Positions 8,361 to 60,547 of a stretch of 64,000 nucleotides of DNA are shown one piece after another. Numbering within the stretch: position 1 is the stretch's first letter; every line of letters begins with the position of its first letter. The position numbers and the translations under genes were made by a program. Source of the stretch: Dehalococcoidia bacterium (GTDB lineage Bacteria; Chloroflexota; Dehalococcoidia; Lucifugimonadales; CAZENU01). The DNA is taken from positions 403,699-467,698 of the forward strand of contig CBDCTC010000005.1 in the NCBI GenBank assembly GCA_965222125.1, given 5' to 3'. The notes beneath the pieces are model-generated. The model did no database searches. It was not told where the DNA came from and saw nothing but the letters and a program-made list of their open reading frames with translations.

Positions 8361-9247
8361 AGTTCGCCTTCTATCCCGGTTGCGTGTCCCGAGGGGCATG
8401 CCCGGAGCTGTACTCCGCGACCGTGGAGGTGTGCGCCAGGCTCGGCATCGAGTTGGACTACAAGCCGATGGAGGGCGCGTCGTGCACCGGGTCGGGCGTC
8501 CTGCAGGAGAAGAACCAGCGGCTCGGCGACACGCTGAACGCCCGCACGTTCGCCATGGCCGAGCGCTCGGGGCTTCCGCTGCTGACGATCTGCAGCACCT
8601 GCCAGGGCGTGATGTCGCAGGCCAACAGCCGCCTCAAGAGCGATCCGGAGTATCTGGCCCAGGTCAACGAGGACCTCGCCGAAGAGGGCCTGCGGTACAC
8701 TGGCCGCGCGGAACCGAAGCACCTTCTCTGGGTGCTGGTCGAGGACTACGGGCTGGGCAGACTCAGGAGCCTGGTCACCCGGCCGCTCACCGGCTTCAAG
8801 GTCGCCCCGTTCTACGGATGCTACATCGTCCGTCCAAGCGCCGCGTTGGGCTTCGACGAAAGGCCGGAGCGCCAGGACTCGCTGGAGAAGGTGATCGAGG
8901 CCGTGGGCGCCGAGGTCGTAGACTTCGCGGGCAAGACCCAGTGCTGCGGGTTCCCGATTCTGACCATCAACCAGACGAACTCGGTCAAGATGGTGGCCAA
9001 CCATACGGTCGACGCCAAGGATCAGGGAGCGGCGGCGATGGTCACGCCGTGCCCGCTGTGCCATCTCAACCTCGACGGCTACCAGCCCCAGGCCGCCGCG
9101 GCCGCGAGGCAGCCGATCGATCTGCCTATCCTGCACCTGCCGCAGATGCTCGGCCTCGCGCTGGGCATCGAGCCGGCAGCCATGCGGCTGAACCGGCACA
9201 TCGTGTCGACCAAGGCGTTGCTGTCGGAGCTCGCTCTGGCCCCCTAG
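8357..9247 (+). CDS. HdrB-like CCG-domain subunit (type E SdhE / thiol:fumarate reductase-like third subunit)
   Basis: The ATG overlaps the sdhB stop (ATGA). MKFAFYPGCVSRG..., CSTCQG, QCCGFP and CPLCHLN form two CCG-type Cys-rich domains. Confidence 0.8.
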   Translation: MKFAFYPGCVSRGACPELYSATVEVCARLGIELDYKPMEGASCTGSGVLQEKNQRLGDTLNARTFAMAERSGLPLLTICSTCQGVMSQANSRLKSDPEYLAQVNEDLAEEGLRYTGRAEPKHLLWVLVEDYGLGRLRSLVTRPLTGFKVAPFYGCYIVRPSAALGFDERPERQDSLEKVIEAVGAEVVDFAGKTQCCGFPILTINQTNSVKMVANHTVDAKDQGAAAMVTPCPLCHLNLDGYQPQAAAAARQPIDLPILHLPQMLGLALGIEPAAMRLNRHIVSTKALLSELALAP

Positions 9248-34298: not shown

Positions 34299-35182
34299 TC
34301 AGCCGCCCTTTGCGCCGGCGACGTCCCTGCGTTGGAAGGGCCAGTAGGCGGCGCCGGCCAAGACGATAGTGTACGCCAGGATCACCAGGAATGCCTGCAA
34401 GGGGTCCGCCTGGCGACCCGCTCGTAGTTTCCGGTAATGGGAACGACGATCAGCTCCACCATGTAGTATCCCAGGGAGGCGGCCAAGCCCGTGCCCGTAG
34501 ACTGGGTCAGCACGGCCAGGAAGACGCCCAGCGCGATGTACGGGGCGAGCCCGTAAACCGCCTTGCCGAACATGATTGCCGCGTCTACCCACTTGCCCGA
34601 GTCGGCAATCCCGCCGTCCTCGCCGGGCGGGACGATGGCCGCGATCACGCTCGCGGCGACCGCCGCGGCTGCCACGGCCAGCAGGCCCACGGCCGCGACC
34701 AGCACAAACAGGATCAACCGAGAGGACATAAGCTGCCAGCGGCCCGTGCCCCTGGTCAAAGTCGTCCTCAGCGTGCCCAGACCGTACTCCGACCCTATCG
34801 AAGACACCGCCAGGATCATGATCAGGATTGGGGCGACAAACATGGCGGCCTGGACGGTGCCGGTGATGGCGTCCGGCATCACGAACACGGCGCGAAAGGT
34901 CTCTCTCGCCTCCGTCCCGGCGCAGCTCTCGGCCCGGAACCTCTCCATGTCCGCCAGGAAGTTCTGCCGTTCATCTTCCGGAAGCTGGTCGATATCTGCG
35001 GGCATGCGGCCGTTCACGAGATCAATACACGACACCGACACCTCCACGACTCGCCATCGACCTCCGTGGACTGCCCAACGGAGGAGGAGCCGCCGGAGAA
35101 GACCTGCTGCAGCGTCTCATTGTGGTACGCGCTGTAGCCGAGCCACAGCATCAGCTGGGTCAACAGTACGGCGACGCCTAAA
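34299..35182 (-). pseudogene. ABC-2-type transporter permease, 3' portion (interrupted by IS1380 copy 1, plus internal frameshifts)
   Basis: LGVAVLLTQLMLWLGYSAY... / VEVSVSCIDLVNGRMP...SSIGSEYGLGTLRTTLTRGTGRWQLMSSRLILFVL... / ...DPLQAFLVILAYTIVLAGAAYWPFQRRDV lie in three different frames. The 5' end continues at 36908..36985. Confidence 0.7.
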
Positions 35183-36907
35183 CTCGAATCCACCGAAGGA
35201 GGGCGTCGGGTCAGTGTCCTGAAGCGGCAAGAGGGTGCTCCTGTGAATCTGGGATAATGGTTTTGAAACAGCAAACCGACCCCAGAACAAGGAGCACCCA
35301 ATAGATGCTACCACGCAACCACCCCGACCGCATCCGTGTCTCTTTCGACGACCACCGCCTGGTGGCCAATGCCGGGCTGCTCCTTCCGGCCACCCTCGCC
35401 CAGCACCTGGGCCTGCGGGAACTCGTCGACCATCACCTCAACCTGGGCGTCGCGCCGGGGCGGGCCAACGCGGGGGACAAGATACTGACCCTGGTTGCGT
35501 CTGCGCTGGCTGGCGGCGACTGTATTGACGACGCCGATGTGTTGCGCACCGGGGGGACAGCCCGCACCCTGGGCGGCACGGTCAAGGCGCCCTCCACCCT
35601 GGGCACCTTCCTGCGCAGTTTCCGGTGGGGCCATGTCCGCCAACTGGACCGGGTGAGCCGGGAGCTGCTGGCCCAGGCCTGGGCGGCTGGGGCCGGACCC
35701 AGCGACGCACCGTTCACCATCGACCTTGATTCGACGATCTGCGAGACCTACGGACTGGCCAAGGAGGGCGCCCGCCACCACGGCTATACCGGCAAGCGGG
35801 GCTATCACCCGCTGCTGGCCATTGCCGCCGGAACCGGCGACGTGCTGATGGCCCGGCTGCGCGAGGGCCGCGCCAACACCGCCCGCGGCGCCGCCCACTT
35901 CCTGCGGGAAACGGTGGGGCGGGTGCGCTACGGCGGGGCCAGGGGACAACTCACGGTGCGGGCCGACAGCGGCTTCTACACCCACGCCCTGGTCGTCGTC
36001 TGCCGCAAGCTGGACGTGCGCTTCTCCATCACCATCCGCCAGCACAAAAGCCTGCACAATCTCATCGAGGCGATACCCGAAGATGCCTGGACGCCGGTTC
36101 CCTACTGGATGGACGGCGCCGCCGATGTGGCCGAGATCACCTACACTCCCTTCCAGAGTGAGCCCGACGCCGCGCCGGTACGGCTCATCGTGCGGCGGGT
36201 GAAGCCCACGCCCGGTTCCCAAATGGCCCTCTTCGCCACCTACAGCTATCACGGCTTCATCACCGACCGGGACGGGGAGACCCTGGAACTGGAGGCCGAC
36301 CACCGCCGCCACGCCGAGATCGAGAATGCCATCCGAGACCTGAAGTACGGCGTCGGACTCAACCATCTCCCCTCGGGCCGCTTCGCCGCCAACGCCGCCT
36401 GGCTGGCGGTCCAGGTGATGGCCCACAACCTGGCCCGCTGGACAGCCCGCATCGGTCTGGGCGAGGGGGTGGTGACCACCAGGACCCTCCGGCGGCGCTT
36501 CTTCTCCCTGGCCGGACGGCTCACCCGCTCGGCCCGCCGCCTCACTTTGCATCTGCCACAGGGCTGGCCTTGGGAAACCCAGTTCACTCGCGCCCTGGCT
36601 CGATTGCGAGCCATTCCACTCCCGACCTGACGGCGCCCGTTTGCCACTGACCCGCCATCAGGCCAACCGAAGGTCCCCGCAAACTCGCGCCACCCTGGTC
36701 CGCGAGCGCCTCTTGCCGCGTCCTCTGTCCTCATCTTGTCCCACAGCGCCCATCGCAGACCGCCATTGGCGCCCCCAAAAGCGCCTGCAGACCCCCCGCC
36801 AACCTCCCGTCTACCCGAATTCGAGCCCGGATCATCGCCCCTGTAACTCCCTCACTCCTCTTCCACTGTCCTCACGCCGTCCATCCATGTCCATCGGTGG
36901 ATTCGAG
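35183..36907 (+). mobile_element. IS1380-family insertion sequence, copy 1 (1725 bp), intact
   Basis: Terminal inverted repeats ctcgaatccaccga(a/t)gg. 5-bp direct duplication CTAAA (35178-35182 and 36908-36912). Single 441-aa transposase ORF. Confidence 0.85.
35305..36630 (+). CDS. IS1380-family DDE transposase
   Basis: MLPRNHPDRIRVSFDDHRLVANAGLLLPATLAQHLGL... is the typical IS1380-family N-terminus. 441 aa. Confidence 0.85.
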   Translation: MLPRNHPDRIRVSFDDHRLVANAGLLLPATLAQHLGLRELVDHHLNLGVAPGRANAGDKILTLVASALAGGDCIDDADVLRTGGTARTLGGTVKAPSTLGTFLRSFRWGHVRQLDRVSRELLAQAWAAGAGPSDAPFTIDLDSTICETYGLAKEGARHHGYTGKRGYHPLLAIAAGTGDVLMARLREGRANTARGAAHFLRETVGRVRYGGARGQLTVRADSGFYTHALVVVCRKLDVRFSITIRQHKSLHNLIEAIPEDAWTPVPYWMDGAADVAEITYTPFQSEPDAAPVRLIVRRVKPTPGSQMALFATYSYHGFITDRDGETLELEADHRRHAEIENAIRDLKYGVGLNHLPSGRFAANAAWLAVQVMAHNLARWTARIGLGEGVVTTRTLRRRFFSLAGRLTRSARRLTLHLPQGWPWETQFTRALARLRAIPLPT

Positions 36908-38498: not shown

Positions 38499-40625
38499 TC
38501 ATAGGAACAGGGGCGCGAAGACCAGGGCGACTATCGACATGAGCTTGATCAGGATGTTGAGCGACGGGCCGGACGTATCCTTGAAGGGGTCGCCGACGGT
38601 GTCGCCGGTGACTGCGGCGGCGTGCTGGCTGGAACCCTTGCCGCCAAGGTGGCCCGCCTCGATGTACTTCTTGGCGTTGTCCCACGCGCCGCCCGCGTTG
38701 GCCATCATGATCGCCAGCAGGAAGCCCGTCGCGATGGAGCCTATGAGCAGCCCGCCCAGGGCCCCTGGCCCCAGCACAATGCCGACGACGACCGGGACGA
38801 TGACAGCCAGCAGGCCGGGGAGGACCATCTCGCGCATGGCGCCGCGGGTGCTGATGTCCACGGCGCGGGCGTAGTCGGCTTCGGCTTTGCCCTCCATCAG
38901 CCCGTCGATCTCACGGAACTGCCGCCGGACCTCCGTCACCATCGCGTTGGCGGCCCTGCCGACGGCCTGCATGGTCAGCGCCGAGAACAGGAACGGCATC
39001 AGGCTGCCTATGATCAACCCCATCAGGAGCTCGACATTCAGCAGGTTGAAGTCCGCGGCCTCGAGCCCGGTGACCTGCGCGTAGGCGGCCATCAGCGCCA
39101 GCGCGGTCAGGACTGCCGAGCCTATCGCGAACCCCTTGCCGGTGGCCGCGGTCGTGTTGCCGAGGGAGTCCAGCGCGTCCGTGCGCTCGCGCACCTCTGG
39201 GCCCATGTGGGCCTGCTCCGCGATGCCGCCGGCGTTGTCGGCGACCGGGCCGTAGGCGTCGGTCGCGAGGGTGATGCCCAGCGTCGACAGCATCCCCACG
39301 GCCGCGAGGGCCACCCCGTAGGTGCCGGCCAACTCGTTCGTGATCCACATGGTGGCAACGATCACCAGTGCCGGGATGACGGTGCTCACCATGCCCAGGC
39401 CGATGCCGCCGATGATCACCGTGGCGTGGCCGGTCTCCGACTGCGCCGCCAACGACCGGGTGAACCTGAACTCGTACGAGGTGTAGACCTCCGAAGACGT
39501 ACCGATTATCTGCCCGGCAATCAGTCCCGTGAGGATCACCCAGAACAGCTCGAAGGGCAGATCGAGGAGGACTATCGCTATGCCGGAGCCAATGAGTATC
39601 AGCGCTCCGGCGCCCAGGATGCCGGTTCGGAGCGACCAGAGCAGGCGGCCCATTGTGGCGCCCTCGCCGGTGCGGACCAGGAAGGAGCCGAGTATCGAGG
39701 CCACGATGCCGATTGAAGCGACGAGAATCGGCAGCATGAAGATATTGGCCTGGAACACTGCGCCGATGTCGGACTGGCCGGACATGCCGCCAACTTCCAC
39801 GAACTTGGGCAGGGCGCCGTCGCTGACGACGTCCGACGAGATCAGGTATCCGGCGCCCACGATGGTGAGGGCGACGGCCGCGATGATCGAGCCCACGTAG
39901 GACTCGAACAGGTCGGCGCCCATGCCGGCCACGTCGCCCACGTTGTCGCCCACGTTGTCGGCGATGGTCGCCGGATTGCGCGGGTCATCCTCCGGGATGC
40001 CCGCCTCGATCTTGCCGACCAGGTCCGCGCCGACGTCCGCGGCCTTCGTGTAGATGCCGCCGCCTACTCTGGCGAACAGCGCAATGGACGACGCGCCGAA
40101 GCCGAAGCCCGCGATGACGCTGATGTCCTGGAAGACCCAGTACACGAGCGTGACGCCCAGCAGGCCGATCGACACCACCGAGATGCCCATAACGGTGCCG
40201 CTGTTGAACGCCACCCTCAACGCGGAGTTCAGGCTGGTCTGGGCCTTCACGACGGTGCGGGTGTTGGCGCGCACGGCGATGTTCATGCCAATGAGACCAG
40301 CCAGCGCGGAGCCTACCGCGCCGATCAGGTACGCGATTGCGGTCGACGGCAGGCCGCCTCCTCCGCCGTCCGTCGTATTGGCGGCGACGCGGCCGGTGAG
40401 GTCGTAGTCGATGAAGAGGGCCAGGACTACGGCTATGACGACGACGAACACGGCGAGCAGCCGGTATTCACGCGACAGGAACGCCATTGCCCCTTCCTGT
40501 ATAGCCCGTCCGATGTACTGGACGCGCTCGCTGCCCTGGTCCTGTCTGAGGATCCAGAGCGTCAGGACGAAGGCGAATCCGAGGCCTACTACGGCCGCTG
40601 CCAGTGCGATGTAGATGATTGCCAA
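38499..40625 (-). CDS. hppA: Membrane-bound ion-translocating pyrophosphatase
   Basis: 708 aa, multi-[61 protein letters not shown] motifs. Confidence 0.93.
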
Positions 40626-40869
40626 TGTTTAACTCCGCAATAAGGTACCGCCCGGTGGGGAAGACCTGGTTTGGATTGACGGCTTCCGCAGGCCGGGCCG
40701 CATCGCCGGAAAAGCTACCAGACGGACATAGACGGGTCAAGGAATCGGGTCTTCCCAAATCCCCCACCTCCGTCATACCTGCGAACGGAGACCTTTGCAT
40801 AACTCCCGTTGCGGGAGACAGCGGTGGCGGAGATGCCGAGTATTTCTAGCAGGGAACCCCCAACCCTGG

Positions 40870-40889
40870 ATTCCCGCCTTCGCGGGAAT
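40870..40889. repeat. REP-like palindrome (attcccgc-cttc-gcgggaat), flanked by ctgg / gacgg
   Basis: Perfect 8-bp stem with a 4-nt loop. Same architecture as 2452-2473. Confidence 0.7.
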
Positions 40890-40961
40890 GACGGTTGTTC
40901 GCGGGAATGGCGGTTGTTTAGCGGGAATGGCGGTTGTTTAAAGGTCTCGGAACGCGGGAAT
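40882..40961. repeat. Short tandem array: three 19-20-nt units gcgggaatg(a/g)cggttgtt(c/ta), plus a fourth partial gcgggaat
   Basis: Units at 40882-40900, 40901-40920 and 40921-40940. Partial unit at 40954-40961. The first unit is the 3' arm of the palindrome. Confidence 0.75.
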
Positions 40962-49937: not shown

Positions 49938-51660
49938 CCCGAATCCACCGATGGACATGGATGGACGGCGTGAGGACAGTGGAAGAGGAGTGAGGGAGTT
50001 ACAGGGGCGATGATCCGGGCTCGAATTCGGGTAGACGGGAGGTTGGCGGGGGGTCTGCAGGCGCTTTTGGGGGCGCCAATGGCGGTCTGCGATGGGCGCT
50101 GTGGGACAAGATGAGGACAGAGGACGCGGCAAGAGGCGCTCGCGGACCAGGGTGGCGCGAGTTGGCGGGGACGTTCAGTTGGCCTGATGGCGGGTCAGTG
50201 GCAAACGGGCGCCGTCAGGTCGGGAGTGGAATGGCTCGCAATCGAGCCAGGGCGCGAGTGAACTGGGTTTCCCAAGGCCAGCCCTGTGGCAGATGCAAAG
50301 TGAGGCGGCGGGCCGAGCGGGTGAGCCGTCCGGCCAGGGAGAAGAAGCGCCGCCGGAGGGTCCTGGTGGTCACCACCCCCTCGCCCAGACCGATGCGGGC
50401 TGTCCAGCGGGCCAGGTTGTGGGCCATCACCTGGACCGCCAGCCAGGCGGCGTTGGCGGCGAAGCGGCCCGAGGGGAGATGGTTGAGTCCGACGCCGTAC
50501 TTCAGGTCTCGGATGGCATTCTCGATCTCGGCGTGGCGGCGGTGGTCGGCCTCCAGTTCCAGGGTCTCCCCGTCCCGGTCGGTGATGAAGCCGTGATAGC
50601 TGTAGGTGGCGAAGAGGGCCAGTTGGGAACCGGGCGTGGGCTTCACCCGCCGCACGATGAGCCGTACCGGCGCGGCGTCGGGCTCACTCTGGAAGGGGGT
50701 GTAGGTGATCTCGGCCACATCGGCGGCGCCGTCCATCCAGTAGGGAACCGGCGTCCAGGCATCTTCGGGTATCGCCTCGATGAGATTGTGCAGGCTTTTG
50801 TGCTGGCGGATGGTGATGGAGAAGCGCACGTCCAGCTTGCGGCAGACGACGACCAGGGCCTGGGTGTAGAAGCCGCTGTCGGCCCGCACCGTGAGTTGTC
50901 CCCTGGCCCCGCCGTAGCGCACCCGCCCCACCGTTTCCCGCAGGAAGTGGGCGGCGCCGCGGGCGGTGTTGGCGCGGCCCTCACGCAGCCGGGCCATCAG
51001 CACGTCGCCGGTTCCGGCGGCAATGGCCAGCAGCGGGTGATAGCCCCGCTTGCCGGTATAGCCGTGGTGGCGGGCGCCCTCCTTGGCCAGTCCGTAGGTC
51101 TCGCAGATCGTCGAATCAAGGTCGATGGTGAACGGTGCGTCGCTGGGTCCGGCCCCAGCCGCCCAGGCCTGGGCCAGCAGCTCCCGGCTCACCCGGTCCA
51201 GTTGGCGGACATGGCCCCACCGGAAACTGCGCAGGAAGGTGCCCAGGGTGGAGGGGCCTTGACCGTGCCGCCCAGGGTGCGGGCTGTCCCCCCGGTGCGC
51301 AACACATCGGCGTCGTCAATACAGTCGCCGCCAGCCAGCGCAGACGCAACCAGGGTCATCATCTTGTCGCCCGTGTTGGCCCGGCCCGGCGCATTGCCCA
51401 GGTCGAGGCACTGCTGGACGAGTTGGGGCAGGCCGAGGCGCAGGGCGAGGGTGGCCGGAAGGATCAGCCCGGCATTGGCCACCAGGCGGTGATCGTCGAA
51501 GGCGATACGGATGCGGTCGGGGTGGTGGCGTGGTAGCATCTATTGGGTGCTCCTTTTCTGGGGTGGGTTTCGTGTTTCAAAACCATTATCCCAGATTCAC
51601 AGGAGCACCCTCTTGCCGCTTCAGGACACTGACCCGACGCCCTCCTTCGGTGGATTCGAG
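49938..51660 (-). mobile_element. IS1380-family insertion sequence, copy 2 (1723 bp), inverted relative to copy 1
   Basis: Same terminal repeats as copy 1 (1 mismatch). Its own 5-bp duplication CTTAG (49933-49937 and 51661-51665). Confidence 0.85.
50215..51539 (-). pseudogene. IS1380-family transposase, copy 2, frame-disrupted near 51253-51258
   Basis: N-terminal 116-aa ORF (51189..51539) and C-terminal 325-aa ORF (50215..51192). Copy 1 reads gtcaaggcgccctcc where copy 2 reads gtcaaggcccctcc (1 nt shorter). Confidence 0.8.
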
Positions 51661-51728
51661 CTTAGACAGATGCGCTGTTTGGTACAATCCCGACTGCCTC
51701 GATGGCAACCTTTTATTGGAGTAGACCT

Positions 51729-52904
51729 ATGAAGATCACCGCCGTCCGAACGCGACCGTACATGATCGACCTCGCGAGGCCGCTCGGCGACGCCAACACG
51801 CCGCATGGCTTCGATTCCAGTGCCGGTCTGGCCGTCTTCGTCGACTCCGACGAGGGTGTCACCGGCGTTGCCCCGGGCGCGCCCGGATCTGACGCGGCCA
51901 TCGCGGCGCTGTCGACCCTGATAGTCGGCAGGGACCCGAGGGGCGTCAGGGGACTGTGGCAGAAAATGGTGAACGCGTCGTTCAAGGGCGGCAACGAAGG
52001 CGCGGCCAACGGGGCGATATCCAGCCTCGACGTGGCGCTCTGGGACCTGAAGGCCAAGCTGAACGGCGAGCCGCTGTGGAAGACACTGGGCGCGTCGTCC
52101 AGGCGGGTGCGCGCATACGCCAGCGGCATCGAGATGTGCCTGAACGACGAGGACATGGCCGCGTTCTACGGGCGCAAGGCAGCCGCGGGCGTGTCCGGCG
52201 GCAAGCTCAAGGTGGGCATCGATCTGGAAGCCGACCTCCGCAGGATCGGCGTCATGAAGGAGGCGCTCGAGACCTCCGGGAAGCGGGCGGAGCTGCTGGT
52301 CGACTCCAACGAGTACTGGTCGCCGAAGCAGGCTATCCGCAACATCTCCGCGTTCGAGGAGCAGTTCGACCTGGTCTGGTGCGAGGAGCCCGCGCGGCGA
52401 TGGGACTACCGAGGACTGCGGAAGGTGTCCCAGAGTGTCAAGGCGGCGGTCGCCACCGGTGAGAACCTGAACCACATAGGCGACTACATGGCGCTCATGG
52501 CGAACGAGGCCGTGGACGTAGTGCAGGTCGGCAGCGGCACTTCCGGCATCACCGGGGCGCTGCAGGTGGCCGACATGGCGTACGGGTTCGAGCTGCCAGT
52601 GTCCGTGATGAACTCTCCCGGCAACCACATGGCCCACCTGGCCGCGGCGCTGCCGAACCACATCATGATGGAGGTCATCGACGCCGGCTTCGAGGCCGTC
52701 CTCAACGTCGACAATCACATCGAGGACGGCTACCTCGTCCTCGGAGACGCGCCCGGCCTAGGCTTGGAGTTCGACCTGGAGAAGCTCGAACACATGGCGG
52801 TCGGCCCCTCCGGCGCCAGAACCAGCGCCGTCCCCACGGCCCGCCGCCGCGGCGCAGGCCTATACTCGGTGCCGGTAGGCGAGCCACTCGAGCTAGACCC
52901 GTAG
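51729..52904 (+). CDS. Enolase-superfamily enzyme (mandelate racemase / muconate lactonizing family)
   Basis: Start at MKITAVRTRPY. SSLDVALWDLKAKLNGEPLWKTLG, LLVDSNEYW, WCEEP and GENL motifs. Confidence 0.8.
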   Translation: MKITAVRTRPYMIDLARPLGDANTPHGFDSSAGLAVFVDSDEGVTGVAPGAPGSDAAIAALSTLIVGRDPRGVRGLWQKMVNASFKGGNEGAANGAISSLDVALWDLKAKLNGEPLWKTLGASSRRVRAYASGIEMCLNDEDMAAFYGRKAAAGVSGGKLKVGIDLEADLRRIGVMKEALETSGKRAELLVDSNEYWSPKQAIRNISAFEEQFDLVWCEEPARRWDYRGLRKVSQSVKAAVATGENLNHIGDYMALMANEAVDVVQVGSGTSGITGALQVADMAYGFELPVSVMNSPGNHMAHLAAALPNHIMMEVIDAGFEAVLNVDNHIEDGYLVLGDAPGLGLEFDLEKLEHMAVGPSGARTSAVPTARRRGAGLYSVPVGEPLELDP

Positions 52905-53147
52905 TAGCGCGCGGTGCCTGGAGTTCGAGGCGGGCCGCCGTTGACCCCTTGCCGAGCTGGACATGACGATACGCAGTTACTGTTAGTGTCACCGCATAAC
53001 CGCTCAGATTCTTGAGTGGTAGCTCCCGCCGCCGGTCCTGACTTCGCTCCGCTCCTCGCATAGGACGGCTCGGATGTTGTCGACGGCCATCACGCCAGCT
53101 CTGGCACCCACAACTCATGGTAGTGGAGATTTTCAAGCCCATTCGGG

Positions 53148-53176
53148 TTGACACCTTGTGCTACGCAGTGTATCGT
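53148..53176 (+). promoter_or_regulatory. Candidate sigma70-type promoter (TTGACA - 17 nt - TATCGT) for the 53.2-57.3 kb operon
   Basis: TTGACA at 53148-53153, a 17-nt spacer, and TATCGT at 53171-53176. AT-rich context about 70 nt upstream of ATG 53247. Confidence 0.45.
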
Positions 53177-53246
53177 GTATTAAGCGTGTAGATATCATAT
53201 ATACTCCGATTGTTACGAGATCTGCGACTTCAAGGAGACGAAATCC

Positions 53247-53729
53247 ATGACCGATCTCAATATCCTGTTGGAAGCTGAGCGTCAGCGGTTGGAGACGCAG
53301 CATACGAACCTTCAAGAGCAGGTCCGGCAAGGCGCCGATCAACTTGCGCTCGTGAAAGGTCGCCTAGAGCATGTACAGGCGCTGTTGGGTGAGGAGCGAG
53401 TGGCGGAGAGTCGCGGAGAGGATTCTCCACTATCGGCCCGACACGAGGACGATACATCTCGTAACGTCTGCGATATCGCTGTGGAGATACTCAACGAGCG
53501 CGACGGTAAACCTATGTATTACAAGGAATTGGCGCAGGAGGTCGTGAGGCGCGGCGGCATTCTCAACGGCGCGACTCCTTGGGCCAGTTTGACCGCTAGG
53601 ATGGTCCAGGACATACGGTTCGTCCGTCCCACAGCCAAGGGCTTCTATGCCCTTCGCAGGGACTATCCAACCGCGCGGAACGTGGGAGCCAGGCTGAACG
53701 GCAGCCGGAGGCGGCGTAGTAGAGGCTAG
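53247..53729 (+). CDS. Coiled-coil + HARE-HTH domain protein
   Basis: The N-terminal LNILLEAERQRLETQHTNLQEQVRQGADQLALVKGRLEHVQALL is heptad-like. The C-terminal DIAVEILNERDGKPMYYKELAQEVVRRGGILNGATPWASLTARMVQDIRFVRPTAKGFYALR matches the HARE-HTH pattern. Confidence 0.65.
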   Translation: MTDLNILLEAERQRLETQHTNLQEQVRQGADQLALVKGRLEHVQALLGEERVAESRGEDSPLSARHEDDTSRNVCDIAVEILNERDGKPMYYKELAQEVVRRGGILNGATPWASLTARMVQDIRFVRPTAKGFYALRRDYPTARNVGARLNGSRRRRSRG

Positions 53730-53761
53730 GTCGAGTGGAGTCATCCCCGAGAGGTAGCGCA

Positions 53762-54943
53762 ATGACGTCCCAGTTTGTCCCGACTGTCACCAACATGGTG
53801 ACCATCGTCCGCAACATTATCGAGGGGTATCGCATGGGTCCCATCCGGGCGCTTGCACAGGAGCCGGTGCAAAACTCCAAAGACGCAGCCCGTGGCCAGG
53901 TCCACATCGAATATCGCCTTCACAAACGGCGTGCTGCAGATGGAACGGGTAGCTACATGCTCACCGTCACCGATTGCAACACCTCGGGCTTGGATGGTCC
54001 GGTTCTTTCGTTCGAAGACATCCAGATGAGAGGCAATGTACTTGGCAAAGACGATAACTGGGCTGCATTTGAGGGGATGGGCTATACGAAGGAAGACGAG
54101 AGCGCCCTCGGTTCCCGCGGCCAAGGCAAAGCAGCCTTCCTGTATCACTCGCGTCTGCCCCAAGCCGCATCATCCGGTCAAGACCGTATGATGATGCTCT
54201 ACGACACCCTACTAGCCGATGGTACGTATCGGTTAGGCGTGAGGTACGCCAACCCATTTGACACAGTGCAGTCCCCGCCATCCGCCGGAGATCGAGCTCG
54301 CTCGACCGTCTCTTCTCGTTATACCTCAGACGATGGTACTGAGATTGACCTGGGTTTGGCTCCACTGGCCTCCGTGGGAACCCGCATCACAGTACCACAC
54401 CTATCGCCGGAGGCGGTGGAGGCCATCCATTCTGGTGAGTTGGCCCAGTGGCTCCAGTGCTGCTGGTGGCGCGCCGTGCAGACAGGCTTGAACATTGACA
54501 TAGTTGACGAGCAGGGCAAGACGAAGCCTGTGACCGTTCCCGCGTGGTGGCAGGCCGAACCGTGGAAGAAGCCGAGTCACGGCGTACAGGTATACAACAA
54601 TATTGACGTTGCCGGTGATCTGAGGATCAAGCGCATCGTTCTTCTCTATGATGAGTCTCTACGCGAACCTGACATCGAGGGCTTCACGCACCAGTTCCAT
54701 GGGGTTCAATTGCTGCGAGGTCAGCAGTGGATAGAGACATTAGGGCTGGAGTTGTCAGACTACATTCCACGGGAAAAACGTCCGGGATTCCGTGGATTCG
54801 TGGAGTTCGATCGTCGCACCGAACGTGAGCTTCGGCGAGCCGAAACTACCCAGCACGAGAGTTTTGATCGCCGAGTATCTGGTGTGAAGACGCTCCTCTC
54901 AGCCGTAGAGAACAAAGGCGCCCGGGGCAGAGCACACCGCTAG
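53762..54943 (+). CDS. GHKL-superfamily (HATPase_c_3 / Hsp90-MORC-like) ATPase
   Basis: RBS gagagg lies 8 nt before ATG 53762. N-box AQEPVQNSKDA, G1-like VTDCNTSGLDG, G2 LGSRGQGKAAF. The stop is at 54941-54943, just after a CCCGGGG run. Confidence 0.7.
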   Translation: MTSQFVPTVTNMVTIVRNIIEGYRMGPIRALAQEPVQNSKDAARGQVHIEYRLHKRRAADGTGSYMLTVTDCNTSGLDGPVLSFEDIQMRGNVLGKDDNWAAFEGMGYTKEDESALGSRGQGKAAFLYHSRLPQAASSGQDRMMMLYDTLLADGTYRLGVRYANPFDTVQSPPSAGDRARSTVSSRYTSDDGTEIDLGLAPLASVGTRITVPHLSPEAVEAIHSGELAQWLQCCWWRAVQTGLNIDIVDEQGKTKPVTVPAWWQAEPWKKPSHGVQVYNNIDVAGDLRIKRIVLLYDESLREPDIEGFTHQFHGVQLLRGQQWIETLGLELSDYIPREKRPGFRGFVEFDRRTERELRRAETTQHESFDRRVSGVKTLLSAVENKGARGRAHR

Positions 54944-54954
54944 AGGGCCCAGGG

Positions 54955-56265
54955 TTGGAGTTCCTGCGCTTCTTGTCCCCAAACGCACGACGAAATTCCA
55001 TCAATGGAAGGGTTTCCTCCAGCTCAGCCCAGCCGGAAATGGACTTGCCAGGGGCAGACCGATGGGAGTGCGACCTACGACTGGATTTTCCTGATCAAGA
55101 GTCCGCGCGCGTCGACTGGGGACAGTACCTCCGAAACGTTGAGGTCGAGGTCAGGCTGGAACCTCGGCGCTTAGAGCACGCCGCTGTGTCGCTGGAGTTA
55201 GCCTACGCTGCCGACAAGGCCAGCGTCGTGCCTGTTGAGAGCCGAGAAATAGGGCTGCAGGACGGGATCGGGGTCGCTCGCTTCGGCGAGTTCCAAGTTA
55301 TCACCGGGAGGATTGCACCTAAGAAGCTGCAGTGCGCGCGGAGCGGGAAGTACAGACTCACCGCACGGGTCGAGTCCAATGGAGCTCAAGTTGCCCGGTC
55401 GTCCCGCAACTTCTACGTGAAAGAGGATCCGCCACCTCACGGCCCCAATCCATATGCGACCTCGATTTCCGTAGAGAACCACACGACCCCGCAGCGCCGT
55501 ATCAACAGCGGCGACACCATAGGCGTGCAGATAAGCGTGACAAATCGTACTTCACAGTCTCAGACCTTCGCACTCACAGCAAGCCTAGGGGAACTCCTGC
55601 TAGATGATATGCTGCCCGTGCCAGCGGATGGGACCCCTCCCGGCGCGACGCCAGTCCGAGTGGCGGGCATCCACACCCGGATCGTGGTTAACCCAGCCGT
55701 GCCCGGTTCGCAGCAGTCCATCAAACTGCCGCCGGGCAAACACGATCTGCGCGCCGACCTCTACCTTGATGGAGAAGTCGTTGCACACGCTAGCCGCACT
55801 GTCTATATCGACGTTGACCCCGTGCAGCCGGACGACTGGCCCCCGTTTAGGATCCAGCAAGTATCCGGTGAGGGATACCACCCCCGCTGGCAGTTTCATA
55901 GAAGAAGTCAGGATGACTGGGTATTGCAGTACCCACCCTCCTATCCCCTATACCGGGCCCTGGAGGGAAGTCCTAGCCGTAGTGGGAGTCGGCTATCAGG
56001 CGTCTCGGCGTTCGTAATCGACGTCTGTGCGGAGGGAATAATCGAATGGGCGGTGGAGCCGCTGGATGTTGGCAACTCATCACGATTGGATGAATTGTTG
56101 GGCGGCGCTCCGGCTGGTGTGGACCCGGACCTATGGGAGGACTATTGCGAGAAGATGGGGGAGCTAGCCAGTCTGCGCCGTACCCGAGAGCAGGTTGACA
56201 AGTACGGGCATCTGGTCAGGGAGTGCGCCGCCCTGTCCTTGAGTCTGTTCGAGGAGCGCGGGTGA
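54955..56265 (+). CDS. Hypothetical beta-rich protein (Ig/CARDB-like segments + helical C-terminus); start uncertain
   Basis: TTG 54955 is preceded by gaggg at a 7-nt spacing. An alternative ATG is at 55039. SISVENHTTPQRRINSGDTIGVQISVTNRTSQSQTFALTASLG looks CARDB/Ig-like. It could instead be the frameshifted continuation of the GHKL gene. Confidence 0.5.
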   Translation: MEFLRFLSPNARRNSINGRVSSSSAQPEMDLPGADRWECDLRLDFPDQESARVDWGQYLRNVEVEVRLEPRRLEHAAVSLELAYAADKASVVPVESREIGLQDGIGVARFGEFQVITGRIAPKKLQCARSGKYRLTARVESNGAQVARSSRNFYVKEDPPPHGPNPYATSISVENHTTPQRRINSGDTIGVQISVTNRTSQSQTFALTASLGELLLDDMLPVPADGTPPGATPVRVAGIHTRIVVNPAVPGSQQSIKLPPGKHDLRADLYLDGEVVAHASRTVYIDVDPVQPDDWPPFRIQQVSGEGYHPRWQFHRRSQDDWVLQYPPSYPLYRALEGSPSRSGSRLSGVSAFVIDVCAEGIIEWAVEPLDVGNSSRLDELLGGAPAGVDPDLWEDYCEKMGELASLRRTREQVDKYGHLVRECAALSLSLFEERG

Positions 56266-57065
56266 TGCCGGTCAAAATATGGGACCGCACGAGCGACGGC
56301 GCGTTGACCAGCAGGGTGGAGACCTCCCGCAGTCATAGCTACAGAGGTGAGCGGTATCGTGCCGATGCCGAAACATTGGATGAGGAGATCGACCGGATGC
56401 TGGATCAGGCCGTAGCGCTATCGGCGTGTGTTCCAGCGATAGGACCCAAACAACAGCCTTTCGTCAAGCGTTGGGCTGTCGGTAGGGCCTTGGTTGAATC
56501 GAGTCTCGCGGACTCAGAGTACTTGGAGACGGAAGAACAGAGATGGCTGTGGCTGGCGATAGCCCGGAAGTGCAGGCTTGGTGTTCGATCAGACTGTCGC
56601 CAGGAGGAAAGTTGGCGAGAACTAATCCCAAATCGAGAATCCGATCCCGAAAGGATCGAGCGCGATGTCTTTGCGATGGGTAGGTGGCTTCAGGAACAAG
56701 AGATCGAACCGGCGATGGCATCTTTCGGCGCCAGTCTGGCTAACGCGCGAGAAATTCACCGCCGGAGCGCAATCAACTCAAAGAATTTGCGCGAAGCCCT
56801 CGCTCACTGGTTCGGTGAACTGTCTCCCTCGCACCGGTCTGAGCTCACGAAGAACGGAAACTACGTACCGCTCGCGAAGGCATTGGCAGGACGCTTCCCG
56901 GCCCGCGGGCCGGGCTCGGCCAAGCGGCCGGTACACTACTCAGTGGAAGAGTTGTACGGGGAAGTGTGTAAGGTGCTTGACCCAATGGCAGCTGATCTGG
57001 CTCCCGGGAACGGCTACCCCGTAGTCAGCAGGCCTCAAGTTCGGATCGGCCGGAGAGCCTCATGA
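56265..57065 (+). CDS. Hypothetical alpha-helical protein (266 aa)
   Basis: The ATG overlaps the preceding stop by 1 nt (TGATG). No motif recognised. Coding-like composition on the same strand as the operon. Confidence 0.5.
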   Translation: MPVKIWDRTSDGALTSRVETSRSHSYRGERYRADAETLDEEIDRMLDQAVALSACVPAIGPKQQPFVKRWAVGRALVESSLADSEYLETEEQRWLWLAIARKCRLGVRSDCRQEESWRELIPNRESDPERIERDVFAMGRWLQEQEIEPAMASFGASLANAREIHRRSAINSKNLREALAHWFGELSPSHRSELTKNGNYVPLAKALAGRFPARGPGSAKRPVHYSVEELYGEVCKVLDPMAADLAPGNGYPVVSRPQVRIGRRAS

Positions 57066-57307
57066 CGGAGTGGTCTCTACAGGACGCGAAGAACAATTTC
57101 AGCGCGCTGGTGAACGCCGCGCTGGCCGGCGAACCCCAGCGAGTTACCCGTCGGGGACGGCCCGCGGTGGTTGTGCTGGCGACGGAGGAGTACGAGCGAC
57201 TTTGCCGCTTGGAGAAGGCCGTCGCTCCGACTCTAGGTGAGCTGCTTCTCGAAATCCCGCAGGACGACCACGAGTTCGACCGGCTTGCCGTTCCAGACTG
57301 GCTGTAG
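57062..57307 (+). CDS. Phd/YefM-family type II antitoxin, no cognate toxin gene downstream
   Basis: MTEWSLQDAKNNFSALVNAALAGEPQRVTRRGRPAVVVLATEEYERLCRLEK is a classical Phd/YefM N-terminal domain. ATGA overlap with the upstream gene. A convergent gene starts 3 nt after its stop. Confidence 0.8.
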   Translation: MTEWSLQDAKNNFSALVNAALAGEPQRVTRRGRPAVVVLATEEYERLCRLEKAVAPTLGELLLEIPQDDHEFDRLAVPDWL

Positions 57308-57309
57308 GA

Positions 57310-58269
57310 CTATCCCCAGCCGCGGAGCTCGTTCACCATTTCGTCGACGATGCGGGGGAGGTCGTACTCCGGGCGCCAGCCCCATTCGCGGCGGGCGTTG
57401 CCGTCGTAGATGGAGCCGAGAGCGCGGCGCTCGTCGTGGACGGCCTGCACCGCGGGGTCGGGCCGAAAATCGAGCCTGGCGCCGGGCAGTCGGGCCAATA
57501 TGGCGTCGGCCAGCTCCTGAGCGCTCGGTGTGGGCGTAGTCCCGGCGAGCAGGTATACGACCGTCTCGATGCGGTCGGCGGGCGCGGCCGCGAGCCTGAC
57601 GATCGCCTCGGCGGCCTCCCGGATGTAGATGATGGGCACCCTGGTGCGGGGCTTCACGAATATGGTGTAGGGCTCGTTTCTCGCGCTGGCCTCGATCGCG
57701 CGGGACGTGTACTGCGATATTCCGGGCGTCGTCACGCCGGGCCCGACGATCGAGGGGTACCTGATCCCGCGGAAGTCGAGGCCGAACTTGCGCCTGTAGA
57801 AGCGGCCCATGTGCTCGCCGAACAGCTTGGTCGTCCCGTAGAACATCGCCGGCCGCTGCAGCGTGTAGTCGTCGACGCCGTCCTCGGGCAGATCGTGTCC
57901 GTAGGTGTTGATCGTGCTGGCGAAGAGCACCTGCGAGACGCCGTGGGCGCGGGCGGCCTCGAGCACGTTGAATGTGCCGACCGCGTTGGCACGAAAGGCG
58001 GCGGCGTGATCGGCCTCCGAGGGCGCGGACAGCATCCCGCCGAGATGGTAGATCGCGTCCGGACGGCTACTCGCCACGGCCGCGTCGACCTCGGACGCAT
58101 CCCCAAGGTCGCCGCGTATGACGGTTGTCTTGTCAGACAGGCCGCCCAGCCGCGCGGCCGACGGGTCGAGGTCGAACAGCGTGATGTTCGTCTCGCCTTG
58201 GGACAGCAGGACGCGGGCGACCTCGGAGCCGAGGAAGCCGGTGCCGCCCGTGATCAGCGTGGCCGCCAT
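57310..58269 (-). CDS. NAD-dependent epimerase/dehydratase (extended SDR)
   Basis: LITGGTGFLGSEVARVL Rossmann motif and YGTTK catalytic YxxxK. Confidence 0.85.
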   Translation of the reverse strand: MAATLITGGTGFLGSEVARVLLSQGETNITLFDLDPSAARLGGLSDKTTVIRGDLGDASEVDAAVASSRPDAIYHLGGMLSAPSEADHAAAFRANAVGTFNVLEAARAHGVSQVLFASTINTYGHDLPEDGVDDYTLQRPAMFYGTTKLFGEHMGRFYRRKFGLDFRGIRYPSIVGPGVTTPGISQYTSRAIEASARNEPYTIFVKPRTRVPIIYIREAAEAIVRLAAAPADRIETVVYLLAGTTPTPSAQELADAILARLPGARLDFRPDPAVQAVHDERRALGSIYDGNARREWGWRPEYDLPRIVDEMVNELRGWG

Positions 58270-58691
58270 CAGTCAGAAGCGGGCTCGAACTTGGGCAGGG
58301 TGACCTCGTTGGTTACGTCGTCGAAGGTCACCGCGACCGCCATGCCGATGCAGATAGCCTCGGGGTCCGGCTCGATGCCGACGAGGTTGGTAGGGAAGCG
58401 GACGCCGTCCTCGAGCTCGACTATCGCCACGACGTACGGGACGTCGCCGCGGAAGCCGGGATGAGGGGAGCGGTGGACGATCCCGAAGGTGTGAAGCCGG
58501 CCGCGGCCGCTCGACCTGGTCCACGACGTATTGCGGGAGAAGCACGTCGGGCAGATGTCCCGCGGGTAGAAATAGGCCTTCCGGCAGTCGTCGCAGCGCC
58601 GGAGCCAGAGCTCGTGCTCGCGGGCTTTTTCCCAGTAGAAGTCGGACTCCGGCTGCGGCGTCGGCAGGGGATTCTTGTAGGGCTGACTCAT
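58269..58691 (-). CDS. Zn-ribbon / OB-fold protein (DUF35 family), thiolase partner
   Basis: Start at MSQPYKNPLP. CDDCRKAYFYPRDICPTCFS is the zinc ribbon, followed by an OB-fold-like segment. Directly downstream of the thiolase-like gene. Confidence 0.8.
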   Translation of the reverse strand: MSQPYKNPLPTPQPESDFYWEKAREHELWLRRCDDCRKAYFYPRDICPTCFSRNTSWTRSSGRGRLHTFGIVHRSPHPGFRGDVPYVVAIVELEDGVRFPTNLVGIEPDPEAICIGMAVAVTFDDVTNEVTLPKFEPASD

Positions 58692-58702
58692 TGGTAGTAC
58701 CG

Positions 58703-59845
58703 TTAGTCGCCAGCCAGGACGACTGTGCCCGTGGACGACATCGCGCCTCCGGTGCCGTGCGCGATAGCCGTCCCGCAGTCGCCGACCTGCCTGGCGCCGC
58801 ACTCGCCGCGAAGCTGTCGGACCGCCTCGACGACGGTGAAGACCCCGTACATCCCCGGGTGGGTGTACGAGAGGCCGCCGCCGTTGGTGTTCAGCGGGAA
58901 ATCGCCGCCCGGCGCCGTGCGCTGGCCCCGGACGAAATCGGGGCCCTCGCCGCGGCCGCAGAAGCCCAGCGCCTCCAGGCTGACGAGCGCGGTGTAGGTG
59001 AACGAGTCGTAGACCACCGCCAGATCGACGTCCGAGTGGGAGACGCCGGCCATCGCCATCGCCTTGCGGCCCGTCTCAGCGGCGACGGACGTGGTGAGGT
59101 CAGGCATCTGGCTGACCATATCGTGGTCGTGCCCCTCCGCCGCGCCCAGTACCCAGACGGGTTTCGCTCGCAGGTTGCGGGCGCGCTCCTCGGTCGTGAT
59201 CACCACCGCGGCGCCGGCGTCCGTGACGAGACAGCAGTCCACAAGGTGAAAGGGCCACGATATCCACGGCGAGTCGTGGTAGTCCTGTAGCTCCATCGGG
59301 CGGTCGTGCATCAACGCCCGCGGGTTGAGCCGGGCCCATTTCCGGGTCGCGACCGCGATCTCGGCCATCGCCTCCCGGGTGCGGTCCTCGCCGTAGTCGT
59401 GCATGTACCGTCTGCACATCATCGAGTAGTACATCGGCGGGTGGGTGATCCCGTACGGGACCTCGTACTGAACGTAGGGCCGTGCGCGGTCCTCGGCCGG
59501 CCGCGTTCTCCCGCTGCGGCCCGCCTGCCCGTGCGTAATCATGGCGACCTCGCAGTAGCCGGCGTTGATCGCGGCGACCGCGTGTGCCACGTGGACGACG
59601 AAGGACGACCCGCCGACGTAGGTGCTGTCGGCGAAGGACGGCCGGATTCCCATGTACTCTGCCGTGATCATCGTGGAGAGCCCGGCGGTGAACAGGCCGT
59701 CGACGTCGTCTTTGTTCAGCCCGCAGTCGTCGAGGGCGTTGTACGCGGCCTCGGCATGGTGCTGCAGCGAGGACTTGTTAGGGACGACACCGATCTCGTC
59801 CGACTCCGCGACCCCTACGATGGCGATTCTCTTTGGAGTGGGCAT
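58703..59845 (-). CDS. Thiolase-family (SCP-x / lipid-transfer type) protein
   Basis: 380 aa. IAIVGVAESDEIG...; GGSSFVVHVAHAVAAINAG; NTNGGGLSYTHPG; HGTGG. Confidence 0.85.
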   Translation of the reverse strand: MPTPKRIAIVGVAESDEIGVVPNKSSLQHHAEAAYNALDDCGLNKDDVDGLFTAGLSTMITAEYMGIRPSFADSTYVGGSSFVVHVAHAVAAINAGYCEVAMITHGQAGRSGRTRPAEDRARPYVQYEVPYGITHPPMYYSMMCRRYMHDYGEDRTREAMAEIAVATRKWARLNPRALMHDRPMELQDYHDSPWISWPFHLVDCCLVTDAGAAVVITTEERARNLRAKPVWVLGAAEGHDHDMVSQMPDLTTSVAAETGRKAMAMAGVSHSDVDLAVVYDSFTYTALVSLEALGFCGRGEGPDFVRGQRTAPGGDFPLNTNGGGLSYTHPGMYGVFTVVEAVRQLRGECGARQVGDCGTAIAHGTGGAMSSTGTVVLAGD

Positions 59846-59866
59846 CCGGTAGGAGGTGGGACGGTG

Positions 59867-60547
59867 CTAGACGACGACCTCCCGGAGGTCGTCGGGGACT
59901 ATCAGCTTCGCTGCCGTCTGCGATTGGACGTATTCGGGCGTGCAGCCGGGGGCGATCTCCCGCAGCAGGAAGCCGTCCTGAGTGACCTCGAACAGGCCCA
60001 GGTTGGTGGAGACCAGGCTGACCACGCCGGGCGTGGTGATCGGCAGGCTGCAGCGGGTCAGCAGGCGGGGCCGGCCGTCACGCGTAGTGTGGTCCATGAC
60101 GATGAACACTAGTTTGGCCCCGACGGCCAGGTCCATCGCGCCGCCTATGCCGCCGCCGGTCCTGCCTGCCGTCTTCCAGTTGGCGAAGTCGCCGTTCTCC
60201 GAGACCTCGTACGCGCCGAGGACTACGACGTCGATGTAGCCAGCACGGATCATCGCGAACGAGTCGCTCTGGTCGGTGATCGCGGCGCCGGGAAGCAGGG
60301 TAGTGTACTCTCCGCTGGCGTTGTTGAGGTGCAGGTCCTCCTCGCCCTCGGCGGCAAGCGGGCCGTAGCCGATCACCCCGTTTTCGGCCTGAAAGACGAC
60401 CTCCCTGTCGCTGAGGTCGTAGTTGGCGCAGAGCGTGGGCATACCGAAGCCGAGATTGACTACCCAGCCGTCCTGGAACTCCATCGCGAGCCGGTCGCAC
60501 CTGGCCTGCCGCGAGAGGCCGATCTGCTTGGGGCGTTGTCCTGTCAT
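59867..60547 (-). CDS. 3-oxoacid CoA-transferase subunit B
   Basis: VNLGFGMPT, SENGDFANW, GGAMDL motifs. Confidence 0.88.
   Translation of the reverse strand: MTGQRPKQIGLSRQARCDRLAMEFQDGWVVNLGFGMPTLCANYDLSDREVVFQAENGVIGYGPLAAEGEEDLHLNNASGEYTTLLPGAAITDQSDSFAMIRAGYIDVVVLGAYEVSENGDFANWKTAGRTGGGIGGAMDLAVGAKLVFIVMDHTTRDGRPRLLTRCSLPITTPGVVSLVSTNLGLFEVTQDGFLLREIAPGCTPEYVQSQTAAKLIVPDDLREVVV

Follow-up and report, generated by a model that had tools for sequence, protein, structure and literature searches.

A recently damaged copy of a rare three-gene ATPase cassette in a Dehalococcoidia genome and its possible role in conflict or defence

A run of five closely packed, same-strand open reading frames (ORFs) in the genome of a Dehalococcoidia bacterium (assembly GCA_965222125.1, contig CBDCTC010000005.1, positions 403,699 to 467,698) raises the question of whether these genes form one operon, and whether this operon constitutes a conflict or defence system of a new kind, as had been proposed from the DNA letters by a first reading of the locus (hereafter the original prediction). 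The whole stretch of 64,000 nucleotides (nt) that was analysed is referred to as the window, and coordinates are those of the window. The locus is a recently damaged copy of a three-gene cassette, made up of g1, a large gene that is split here into g2 and g3 (together g2g3), and g4, and it lies beside a separate leftover antitoxin gene, g5. With regard to its function, we give a probability of roughly 0.5 to the reading that the cassette is an undescribed paraMORC-like, nucleic-acid-directed accessory conflict or defence system. The features are as follows (lengths in amino acids, aa):

53148..53176, forward strand: promoter-like TTGACA-17-TATCGT site (10/12 matches), within a 340-nt AT-rich spacer 5' of g1
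53247..53729, forward strand: g1, 160 aa, with a predicted coiled-coil N-terminus, a HARE-HTH domain at aa 76-128 and a basic tail
53762..54943, forward strand: g2, N-terminal half of an ~850-aa gene (predicted GHKL ATPase and second domain), start set by homologues
54918..54955, forward strand: lesion that splits the large gene, located by alignments to relatives and three-frame translation
54955..56265, forward strand: g3, C-terminal half of the ~850-aa gene, TTG start, with matches to P0002 and P0266
56265..57065, forward strand: g4, 266 aa (family about 250 aa), with the motif RGPGSAKRPVHY
57062..57307, forward strand: g5, Phd/YefM-family antitoxin (Pfam PF02604) without a toxin

An interrupted gene and a leftover antitoxin gene

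All junctions between the five ORFs were found as originally described, with a 32-nt gap before the g2 ATG at 53762, an 11-nt gap between g2 and g3, a TGATG overlap of g3 with g4 and an ATGA overlap of g4 with g5. Judged by the homologues, which begin with MTSQFVPTV, ATG 53762 is the true start of g2, while the open frame reaches back to GTG 53735. The idea that these five genes make up one unit is nevertheless refuted, since g2 and g3 are one gene in relatives and the nucleotide homology to relatives stops before g5.

Cassette loci carry L-numbers here, and 64 of them come from a scan of one genome per species (185,579 species genomes). Of the 63 scorable species-representative loci, 45 have the large gene as a single open frame of ~850-900 aa, and in tblastn searches with the window proteins against the 64 loci the g2 and g3 matches share a reading frame almost everywhere. 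In P0002, the product of a single ORF, residues 413-690 are 69% identical to residues 1-277 of g3, a comparable match was obtained with P0005, and homologues of g2 are often 600-700 aa long. Besides, the 7.2-kb metagenome contig L074, which is 96% identical in nucleotides to window positions 51662-57009, has the enolase-superfamily gene and the 160-aa g1 in common with the window, together with a 250-aa g4 and an undamaged ORF for a protein of 848 aa (P0266) that spans g2 plus g3. These alignments show g2 and g3 to be two halves of one ~850-aa gene, and because a 96%-identical relative carries the ORF intact, the split is recent. The original prediction had counted two separate genes here and had named gene 3 as a possible effector; as g3 belongs to the same ORF as g2 in relatives, it is therefore dismissed as a separate effector candidate.

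The lesion was dissected by alignment to L001, L014, L006-L008 and L074. A 53-nt deletion has its junction between 54917 and 54918, and at 54940-54955 16 nt replace 6 nt of the relatives, a net insertion of 10 nt which creates the stop codon TAG (54941-54943), a Shine-Dalgarno-like GAGGG motif and, 7 nt after GAGGG, the TTG at 54955. Three-frame translation of the linker recovered pieces of the ancestral peptide in different frames. An 18-nt near-repeat (16/18 matching) joins the 3' part of the enolase-superfamily gene, at 52755-52772 (GGCCTAGGCTTGGAGTTC), to the inserted segment that makes the new g3 start, at 54946-54963 (GGCCCAGGGTTGGAGTTC); this near-repeat may have been the template for the 10-nt insertion, or may be due to chance.

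Purifying selection was observed on all parts of the cassette. The window-branch ratio of nonsynonymous to synonymous substitution rates (dN/dS) in a three-taxon comparison is 0.09-0.21 for g1, g2, g3 and g4 (0.135 for g3), and the window copy carries no further stop or frameshift, neither in the 435 codons of g3 nor in g4. A long-standing pseudogene is ruled out by these dN/dS values together with the intact 96% relative. Because the lesion in the interdomain linker cuts the large gene into g2 and g3, the window copy is likely to be impaired, or could at most function in the form of two chains. We consider it rather doubtful that the split is a tolerated or selected two-chain version, in which the ATPase and C-terminal modules would be made separately and then assemble. 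The inserted 10 nt yield a stop, a GAGGG motif and a start codon at once, and the gene is broken in an interdomain linker of poor conservation. This linker also carries a TGG-to-TAG nonsense change (9180-9182) in L001, which at 79.6% nucleotide identity is the nearest relative after L074 and whose downstream half is annotated as a separate 408-aa gene; the undamaged g3 and g4 and the low dN/dS of g3 also agree with two working chains. However, with L074 intact at 96% identity the lesion is recent, and low dN/dS and the lack of secondary damage are expected either way. Moreover, 17 linker residues are gone, breaks in other loci lie at many different positions, and the expression of g3 from its TTG is putative only.

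Gene 5 had been taken for a Phd/YefM antitoxin without a toxin, and this identification stands: g5 encodes a full-length Phd-family antitoxin (PF02604, PhdYeFM_antitox, 2e-15; TIGR01552, 7e-14), no ORF follows it, and no toxin gene was found 3' of g5 in the window, where the convergent epimerase gene reaches 57310, 3 nt past g5. Its place as the fifth gene of the operon could not be upheld. In the comparison with L001 and L014, nucleotide homology starts with g1 (53247/53252) and stops at 57034/56998, within the 3' end of g4. At the same site L074 (6362-6915) carries a 5'-truncated Phd gene (C-terminal 49 codons) and an intact PIN/VapC gene of 134 aa. Since the homology to L001, L014 and L074 ends within g4 and VapC survives in L074, g5 is an orphan antitoxin from a separate Phd-VapC pair outside the cassette. 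Identity between the window and L074 falls from 96% in the cassette to only 80% in the Phd flank, a drop that points to recombination with a breakpoint near 57009. The ATGA overlap was rejected as a sign of operon membership; homology to relatives ends at about 57009, beyond which the g4 frame stays open for about 18 codons of unrelated sequence and so overlaps g5 by accident. The Phd-VapC module has decayed in opposite ways, the window having kept Phd and lost VapC, and L074 having kept VapC and part of Phd. By tblastn, no locus has a g5 relative beside the cassette except L065, about 3.5 kb downstream, where it is followed by a PIN/VapC gene (an intact Phd-VapC pair) within a type I restriction-modification locus. 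For annotation, 'genes 2 and 3' should thus be treated as one interrupted gene, and the Phd gene as what is left of an independent toxin-antitoxin pair.

The ATPase and its partner proteins

Bergerat-fold motifs had been claimed for gene 2, and the cited motifs do fall on invariant columns of the family. In two sets of 37 and of 25 sequences, the N-box AQEPVQNSKDA shows no variation at Q42, P44, Q46, N47 and D50, and has either E or D at position 43. A variant motif II, D80-x-x-T-x-G-L-x-G, is conserved at D80, T83, G85, L86 and G88; motif III, G126-S-R128-G129-x-G131-K132, is invariant, and motif IV, G215-T216-R217, is conserved. The AlphaFold2 model of g2 (predicted local distance difference test score, pLDDT, 87.3; predicted template modelling score, pTM, 0.89) gave 251 Foldseek matches in the PDB at E <= 0.001, led by GRP94, Hsp90, MORC3, TRAP1, GyrB and TopoVI-B. 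E-values extend from 5e-12 (Hsp90/GRP94) to 1e-7, with HtpG, MORC3/4, GyrB and TopoVI-B among the matches, and the structural alignments of 420-450 columns cover the ATPase and the following domain, i.e., the middle or transducer domain of Hsp90, MORC3 and GyrB. The anticipated HATPase_c_3 hit did not appear, as g2 has no match in the Pfam HATPase_c family or in NCBIfam and only a weak one to sacsin (the Hsp90-like SACS, E 0.3); PDB sequence-profile searches with A1, A2 and A3 yielded nothing. By fold only, the predicted model confirms g2 as a GHKL (Bergerat-fold) ATPase, and the ATP-binding motifs of the large protein are intact.

Downstream of these domains, g3 contains two repeated beta-rich segments (internal repeat E 3e-4), and the ~450-residue extension ends in a conserved C-terminal region without catalytic-looking invariants. 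The Ig/CARDB-like character originally ascribed to gene 3 was not confirmed, its basis being limited to the internal repeat and a sub-threshold match to the beta-sandwich family DUF7490 (E 0.007); BiPBP_C, another beta-sandwich family, was likewise matched below threshold.

The C-terminus of g1 is a HARE-HTH domain, as had been surmised from its pattern, with a score of 42.1 against Pfam PF05066 (E 1.1e-10; gathering cutoff 25.9), and the orthologues in L002, L069, L070, L072 and L074 are annotated likewise. An AAGGAG sits 8 nt 5' of the g1 ATG. In tblastn searches most Chloroflexota loci proved to have g1 5' of the ATPase gene, and no g1 was found in the Acidimicrobiia loci. In L046 and L049 the place next to the ATPase gene is taken by a minus-strand ORF instead of g1. 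Hence g1 is an accessory first gene of the cassette.

In agreement with the original description of gene 4 as helical and devoid of any known motif, the AlphaFold2 model of g4 is mainly helical (pLDDT 91), and none of the 199 homologues of about 250 aa in its family has a Pfam domain. The family has 33 invariant positions, among them E29, R32, D39, D43, R69, R74, K102, C103, R108, D134, Q143, Q145, H224, E233 and the loop RGPGSAKRPVHY; about 14 invariant residues are charged or polar. In the window protein homology to relatives stops near 57009, the last ~18 codons being junction sequence. Foldseek searches with the g4 model found no match in the PDB (best E 0.24) or BFVD (best E 0.07), with template modelling scores (TM) below 0.25. 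An exhaustive HMMER search of 1.84 billion representative proteins with the g4 profile returned only 66 hits, all stand-alone members or fragments of the family, and thus neither relatives outside the family nor fusions. A TopoVI-like topoisomerase was ruled out, as g4 is helical and lacks a Toprim-like sheet.

In 54 of the 64 loci the large gene ends in a stop codon that shares one base with the g4 ATG (T[GA]ATG), and this overlap persists across roughly 25-80% amino-acid identity. Such persistence is strong evidence at the sequence level that the large gene and g4 are translationally coupled, and since the overlap implies coupling, the two products would be physical partners.

Distribution and possible function of the cassette

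The expectation that genes 1-4 would be syntenic in other genomes was borne out, with genes 2 and 3 counted as one: the order g1, g2g3, g4 is conserved in the gene calls of independent assemblies and in the tblastn map. The cassette is nevertheless rare, the 64 loci among the 185,579 species genomes all lying in metagenome-assembled genomes (MAGs) from Chloroflexota (Dehalococcoidia, Anaerolineae, Phototrophicaceae, Aggregatilineales) and Acidimicrobiia (including Candidatus Poriferisocius), together with one Actinomycetes and one Bathyarchaeia MAG. Judging from the record titles, most of the hosts appear to be sponge- or coral-associated. Identity to the window protein does not track taxonomy, with 52% for the Actinomycetes, 50% for the Bathyarchaeia and 45-48% for the Anaerolineae proteins.

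The G+C content (GC) sets the cassette apart. The AT-richness noticed by eye was reproduced by computation, with a GC of 0.55-0.61 over 53.0-57.0 kb versus 0.65-0.70 in both flanks (500-nt windows), i.e., about 8% lower, and in 52 of 58 loci the cassette lies below its flanks (mean -4.5 points, Wilcoxon p 5e-10). Nonsense codons, frameshifts and deletions, as well as a 4-kb insertion and a truncating insertion sequence (IS), have broken the large gene in about 18 of the 63 species loci (~29%), although some frameshifts in long-read assemblies may be sequencing errors; the break positions are scattered along the gene, as random decay predicts. Two genomes hold two diverged copies each, L020 and L037 in OY730475.1 and L024 and L029 in OZ243977.1. 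The copies in OY730475.1 are about 35 kb apart and that of L037 is frameshifted; L020 has a DndB-like neighbour, and neighbours of L020 and L037 share an A-L-x-I-Y-R-D-x-M-R-P-F-I motif.

Defence-type neighbours were found in the form of Type ISP restriction-modification with HsdR (L054), Type ISP (L012), Mrr (L013), an AAA_21 protein (L014), SNF2/DUF3670 (L022) and type I restriction-modification (L065). In L028 the neighbours are cytosine-methylase-like ORFs, as judged by sequence motif, and DndB-like proteins are also near some copies. These neighbours belong to Dehalococcoidia and Actinomycetes loci, are variable and lie outside the cassette. Membership in MADS was considered and rejected, as the 'mad2' and 'mad3' neighbour matches are ordinary type I methylase and specificity subunits.

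Owing to the low GC, the patchy spread across phyla, the frequent decay and the restriction-modification neighbours, we give about even odds to the paraMORC-like conflict or defence system introduced above. The weak but colinear PDC-M33A match, the purifying selection on all parts and the paraMORC and VcSduA precedents described below also speak for this reading. In agreement with the original prediction, no named defence system could be assigned by Pfam, NCBIfam or PADLOC, where the five window proteins gave HARE-HTH, Phd and noise only, and a wider scan of the families, covering 25 full-length ATPases and 46 g4 proteins, added only a weak match to PDC-M33A. Likewise, we found no description of this system in the literature on HARE-HTH with GHKL or on PDC-M33.

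Several observations weigh against a conflict function. The same scans detected no nuclease, helicase, methylase or other known effector domain in the cassette proteins, as had been noted at the outset for the first three activities, and the second domain of the ATPase is an S5 candidate only and the extension an Ig-like candidate only. The neighbour survey is a raw tally without a background control, and several of its PADLOC matches (AriA, LmuB) probably stem from ATPases of the SbcC type. IMG/VR contigs (A3 and A2 scans) and phage and plasmid collections (tblastn with P0266) yielded no copy of the cassette. In addition, about 19 Anaerolineae-type loci occupy one site between the nuo operon and rpoB, 5-7 Acidimicrobiia loci adjoin nrdJ (class II ribonucleotide reductase), and L002-type Dehalococcoidia loci lie between hppA and nuo; these fixed housekeeping positions look like vertical inheritance. 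Consistent housekeeping contexts, which the original prediction would have held against itself, were thus found in part, at the nuo/rpoB and nrdJ positions, while several Dehalococcoidia copies lie among restriction-modification genes.

Such positions bring up a different function, that of a chromosome or transcription accessory module, in which the HARE-HTH protein would recruit the MORC-like clamp to DNA or RNA polymerase and the clamp would compact or silence chromosomal regions, e.g., insertion sequences or foreign DNA. Eukaryotic MORCs function in chromatin compaction (PMC2292703), and g1 shows a slight similarity, below the model's cutoff, to the delta subunit of RNA polymerase (TIGR04567, E 2e-4). 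The purifying selection on all parts, the lack of a detectable nuclease or other toxic effector and the fixed nuo-rpoB and nrdJ positions would also suit such a module. On the other hand, it has to contend with a large gene that is broken in more than a quarter of the species loci, a GC that departs from the host value, the extreme rarity of the cassette, an identity that is independent of taxonomy, and restriction-modification genes flanking some Dehalococcoidia copies. A dispensable, horizontally moving function therefore fits better, and we regard an accessory module as unlikely.

Toxin-antitoxin genes also recur near the cassette, including Phd/VapC (window and L074), Gp49/HTH_37 pairs (L069), SocA_Panacea (L070) and a PIN protein (L029). 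These, as well as the small, autonomous, GC-deviant and often inactivated cassette with the coupled g2g3-g4 pair as its conserved core, would be in line with a selfish or addiction module, toxin-antitoxin-like or abortive-infection-like, that harms cells losing it, with g4 as toxin or antidote. However, an 850-aa ATPase is atypical of toxin-antitoxin modules, no toxin-like domain was detected, plasmids, phages and IMG/VR contigs gave no copies, and the cassette is stably inherited at one position throughout a clade; an addiction module thus appears improbable.

If the cassette is a conflict or defence system, the large protein may dimerise on ATP binding, by analogy with other GHKL clamps (MutL, Hsp90, MORC, paraMORC) and with the GHKL-nuclease VcSduA, and g1 may recognise DNA or DNA-bound complexes and target the clamp there. 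The beta-rich extension could act as scaffold or sensor, while g4, which would be made in step with the ATPase through translational coupling, would be the likeliest effector or regulator. A more specific version of this proposal can be put forward only tentatively, namely that a HARE-HTH adaptor directs an ATP-gated MORC-like clamp to foreign DNA and thereby controls g4 as an effector with a fold and chemistry new to the databases, that the cassette spreads horizontally mostly among genomes with sponge or coral titles, and that the breaks in the large gene, including those in the linker of the window copy and L001, reflect a cost of carriage or a working two-chain form.

Should the cassette prove to be a working defence or silencing system, it would add to the prokaryotic conflict repertoire a GHKL/MORC-type machine without a recognisable nuclease, helicase or methylase, and would give a first functional context to the orphan g4 family with its confidently predicted structure and no PDB or BFVD match. 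The way in which MORC-like ATPases and DNA-recognition modules are coupled might also become clearer. Besides, the system would be linked to a habitat, being found mostly in Chloroflexota and Acidimicrobiia genomes with names that hint at sponge or coral hosts; sponge microbial communities have been reported to be enriched in defence genes (PMC5099237, PMC5649159, PMC8163846).

The promoter with which the stretch had been said to open is only plausible: the TTGACA-17-TATCGT site is present at 53148-53176, but 2 sites of this type were found versus 1.1 expected in the scan, which is not significant by itself, and its presence in L074 is uninformative as that locus is 96% identical. No inverted or direct terminal repeats were seen at the borders of the cassette when 52.7-57.5 kb was searched for repeats. 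Two inverted IS copies of the DDE_Tnp_1_4 family, at 35174-36840 and 50005-51662, are 97.7% identical over 1717 nt; the former has an intact 441-aa transposase ORF (35305-36630, forward strand), and in the latter the transposase lies in two ORFs (50215-51192 and 51189-51539, reverse strand). Related IS copies were seen in L013 (two, 88% identity) and in L065 (one, which truncates the cassette there). An H+-pyrophosphatase gene lies directly 5' of the cassette in L002, L006, L010, L011 and L051, and that of the window is found at 38505-40344, 12.8 kb from the cassette. Because the H+-pyrophosphatase gene is displaced, the L074 homology starts exactly where the IS ends (51662), and short pieces of the L074 upstream spacer (L074 1-942) match window positions 40749-40900, these comparisons suggest that about 10.8 kb ending in the IS were inserted upstream of the cassette, in the region 40.4-51.66 kb. 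On the 3' side, 57310-60547 on the reverse strand holds ordinary metabolic genes at host GC, encoding an NAD-dependent epimerase, a ChsH2-like OB-fold/zinc-ribbon protein, an SCP-x-type thiolase and a coenzyme A transferase.

Comparison with known systems

Among type II Phd/YefM-VapC modules, g5 is alike as a full-length antitoxin with relatives that are followed by PIN/VapC genes in L065 and L074; it differs in that no toxin gene follows it, and it is not conserved with the cassette.

The Hsp90, HtpG and GRP94 chaperones are the best structural matches of g2 over the N-terminal and middle domains (E 5e-12, TM about 0.5), and the weak Pfam sacsin match of the large protein is Hsp90-like as well. 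In contrast, identity is as low as ~12%, an Hsp90-type C-terminal domain is missing, and the large gene shares its operon with genes for a DNA-binding HARE-HTH protein and an orphan protein; the cassette is moreover rare and often pseudogenised, unlike a core chaperone.

The phage-defence candidate PDC-M33A (PADLOC-DB v2.0.0) is the only defence-database model that was matched, weakly, by 20 of 25 family members (best E 3.5e-8). The matches are short but colinear, lying at the N-box (profile about 13-64) and, in L029, at residues 365-456 versus profile positions 362-450. Differences are apparent in the window protein, which reaches only E 0.003 over 37 residues, and in the length of the profile, 627 positions versus about 850 aa; g1 and g4 match no PDC-M33 model, and g4 matches nothing in PADLOC.

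VcSduA (paraMORC3, Shedu type I-D), a validated anti-phage protein, is a GHKL ATPase fused to a DUF4263 PD-(D/E)xK nuclease, and its anti-phage function needs the ATPase glutamate (PMC12137116). In both cases a downstream effector is proposed to be under the control of a GHKL ATPase that has a clamp-like middle domain, and VcSduA serves as a working model of an immune protein gated by its ATPase. The cassette departs from VcSduA in having no DUF4263 or other nuclease domain (25 full-length members gave no Pfam or PADLOC match to Shedu/DUF4263), in the candidate effector being a separate, translationally coupled protein, and in the additional HARE-HTH gene.

A parallel in architecture is offered by the MORC and paraMORC1-5 families, GHKL plus S5 proteins that are found in restriction-modification-type operons (Iyer, Abhiman & Aravind 2008, PMC2292703). 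They and the large protein have in common an N-terminal GHKL domain with four ATP-binding motifs, a second domain and a family-specific C-terminal extension, as well as a sporadic, laterally mobile distribution with some copies among restriction-modification genes, and MORC3 and MORC4 are among the structural matches of g2. The cassette differs in that no Pfam HATPase_c or HATPase_c_3 match is obtained and no superfamily II helicase, methylase, Vsr/RE-fold, HNH or TIR partner is present inside it. The place of such partners is taken by a HARE-HTH protein and an orphan protein of 250 aa, and the extension of the large protein consists of beta-rich repeats and a helical domain without a catalytic motif.

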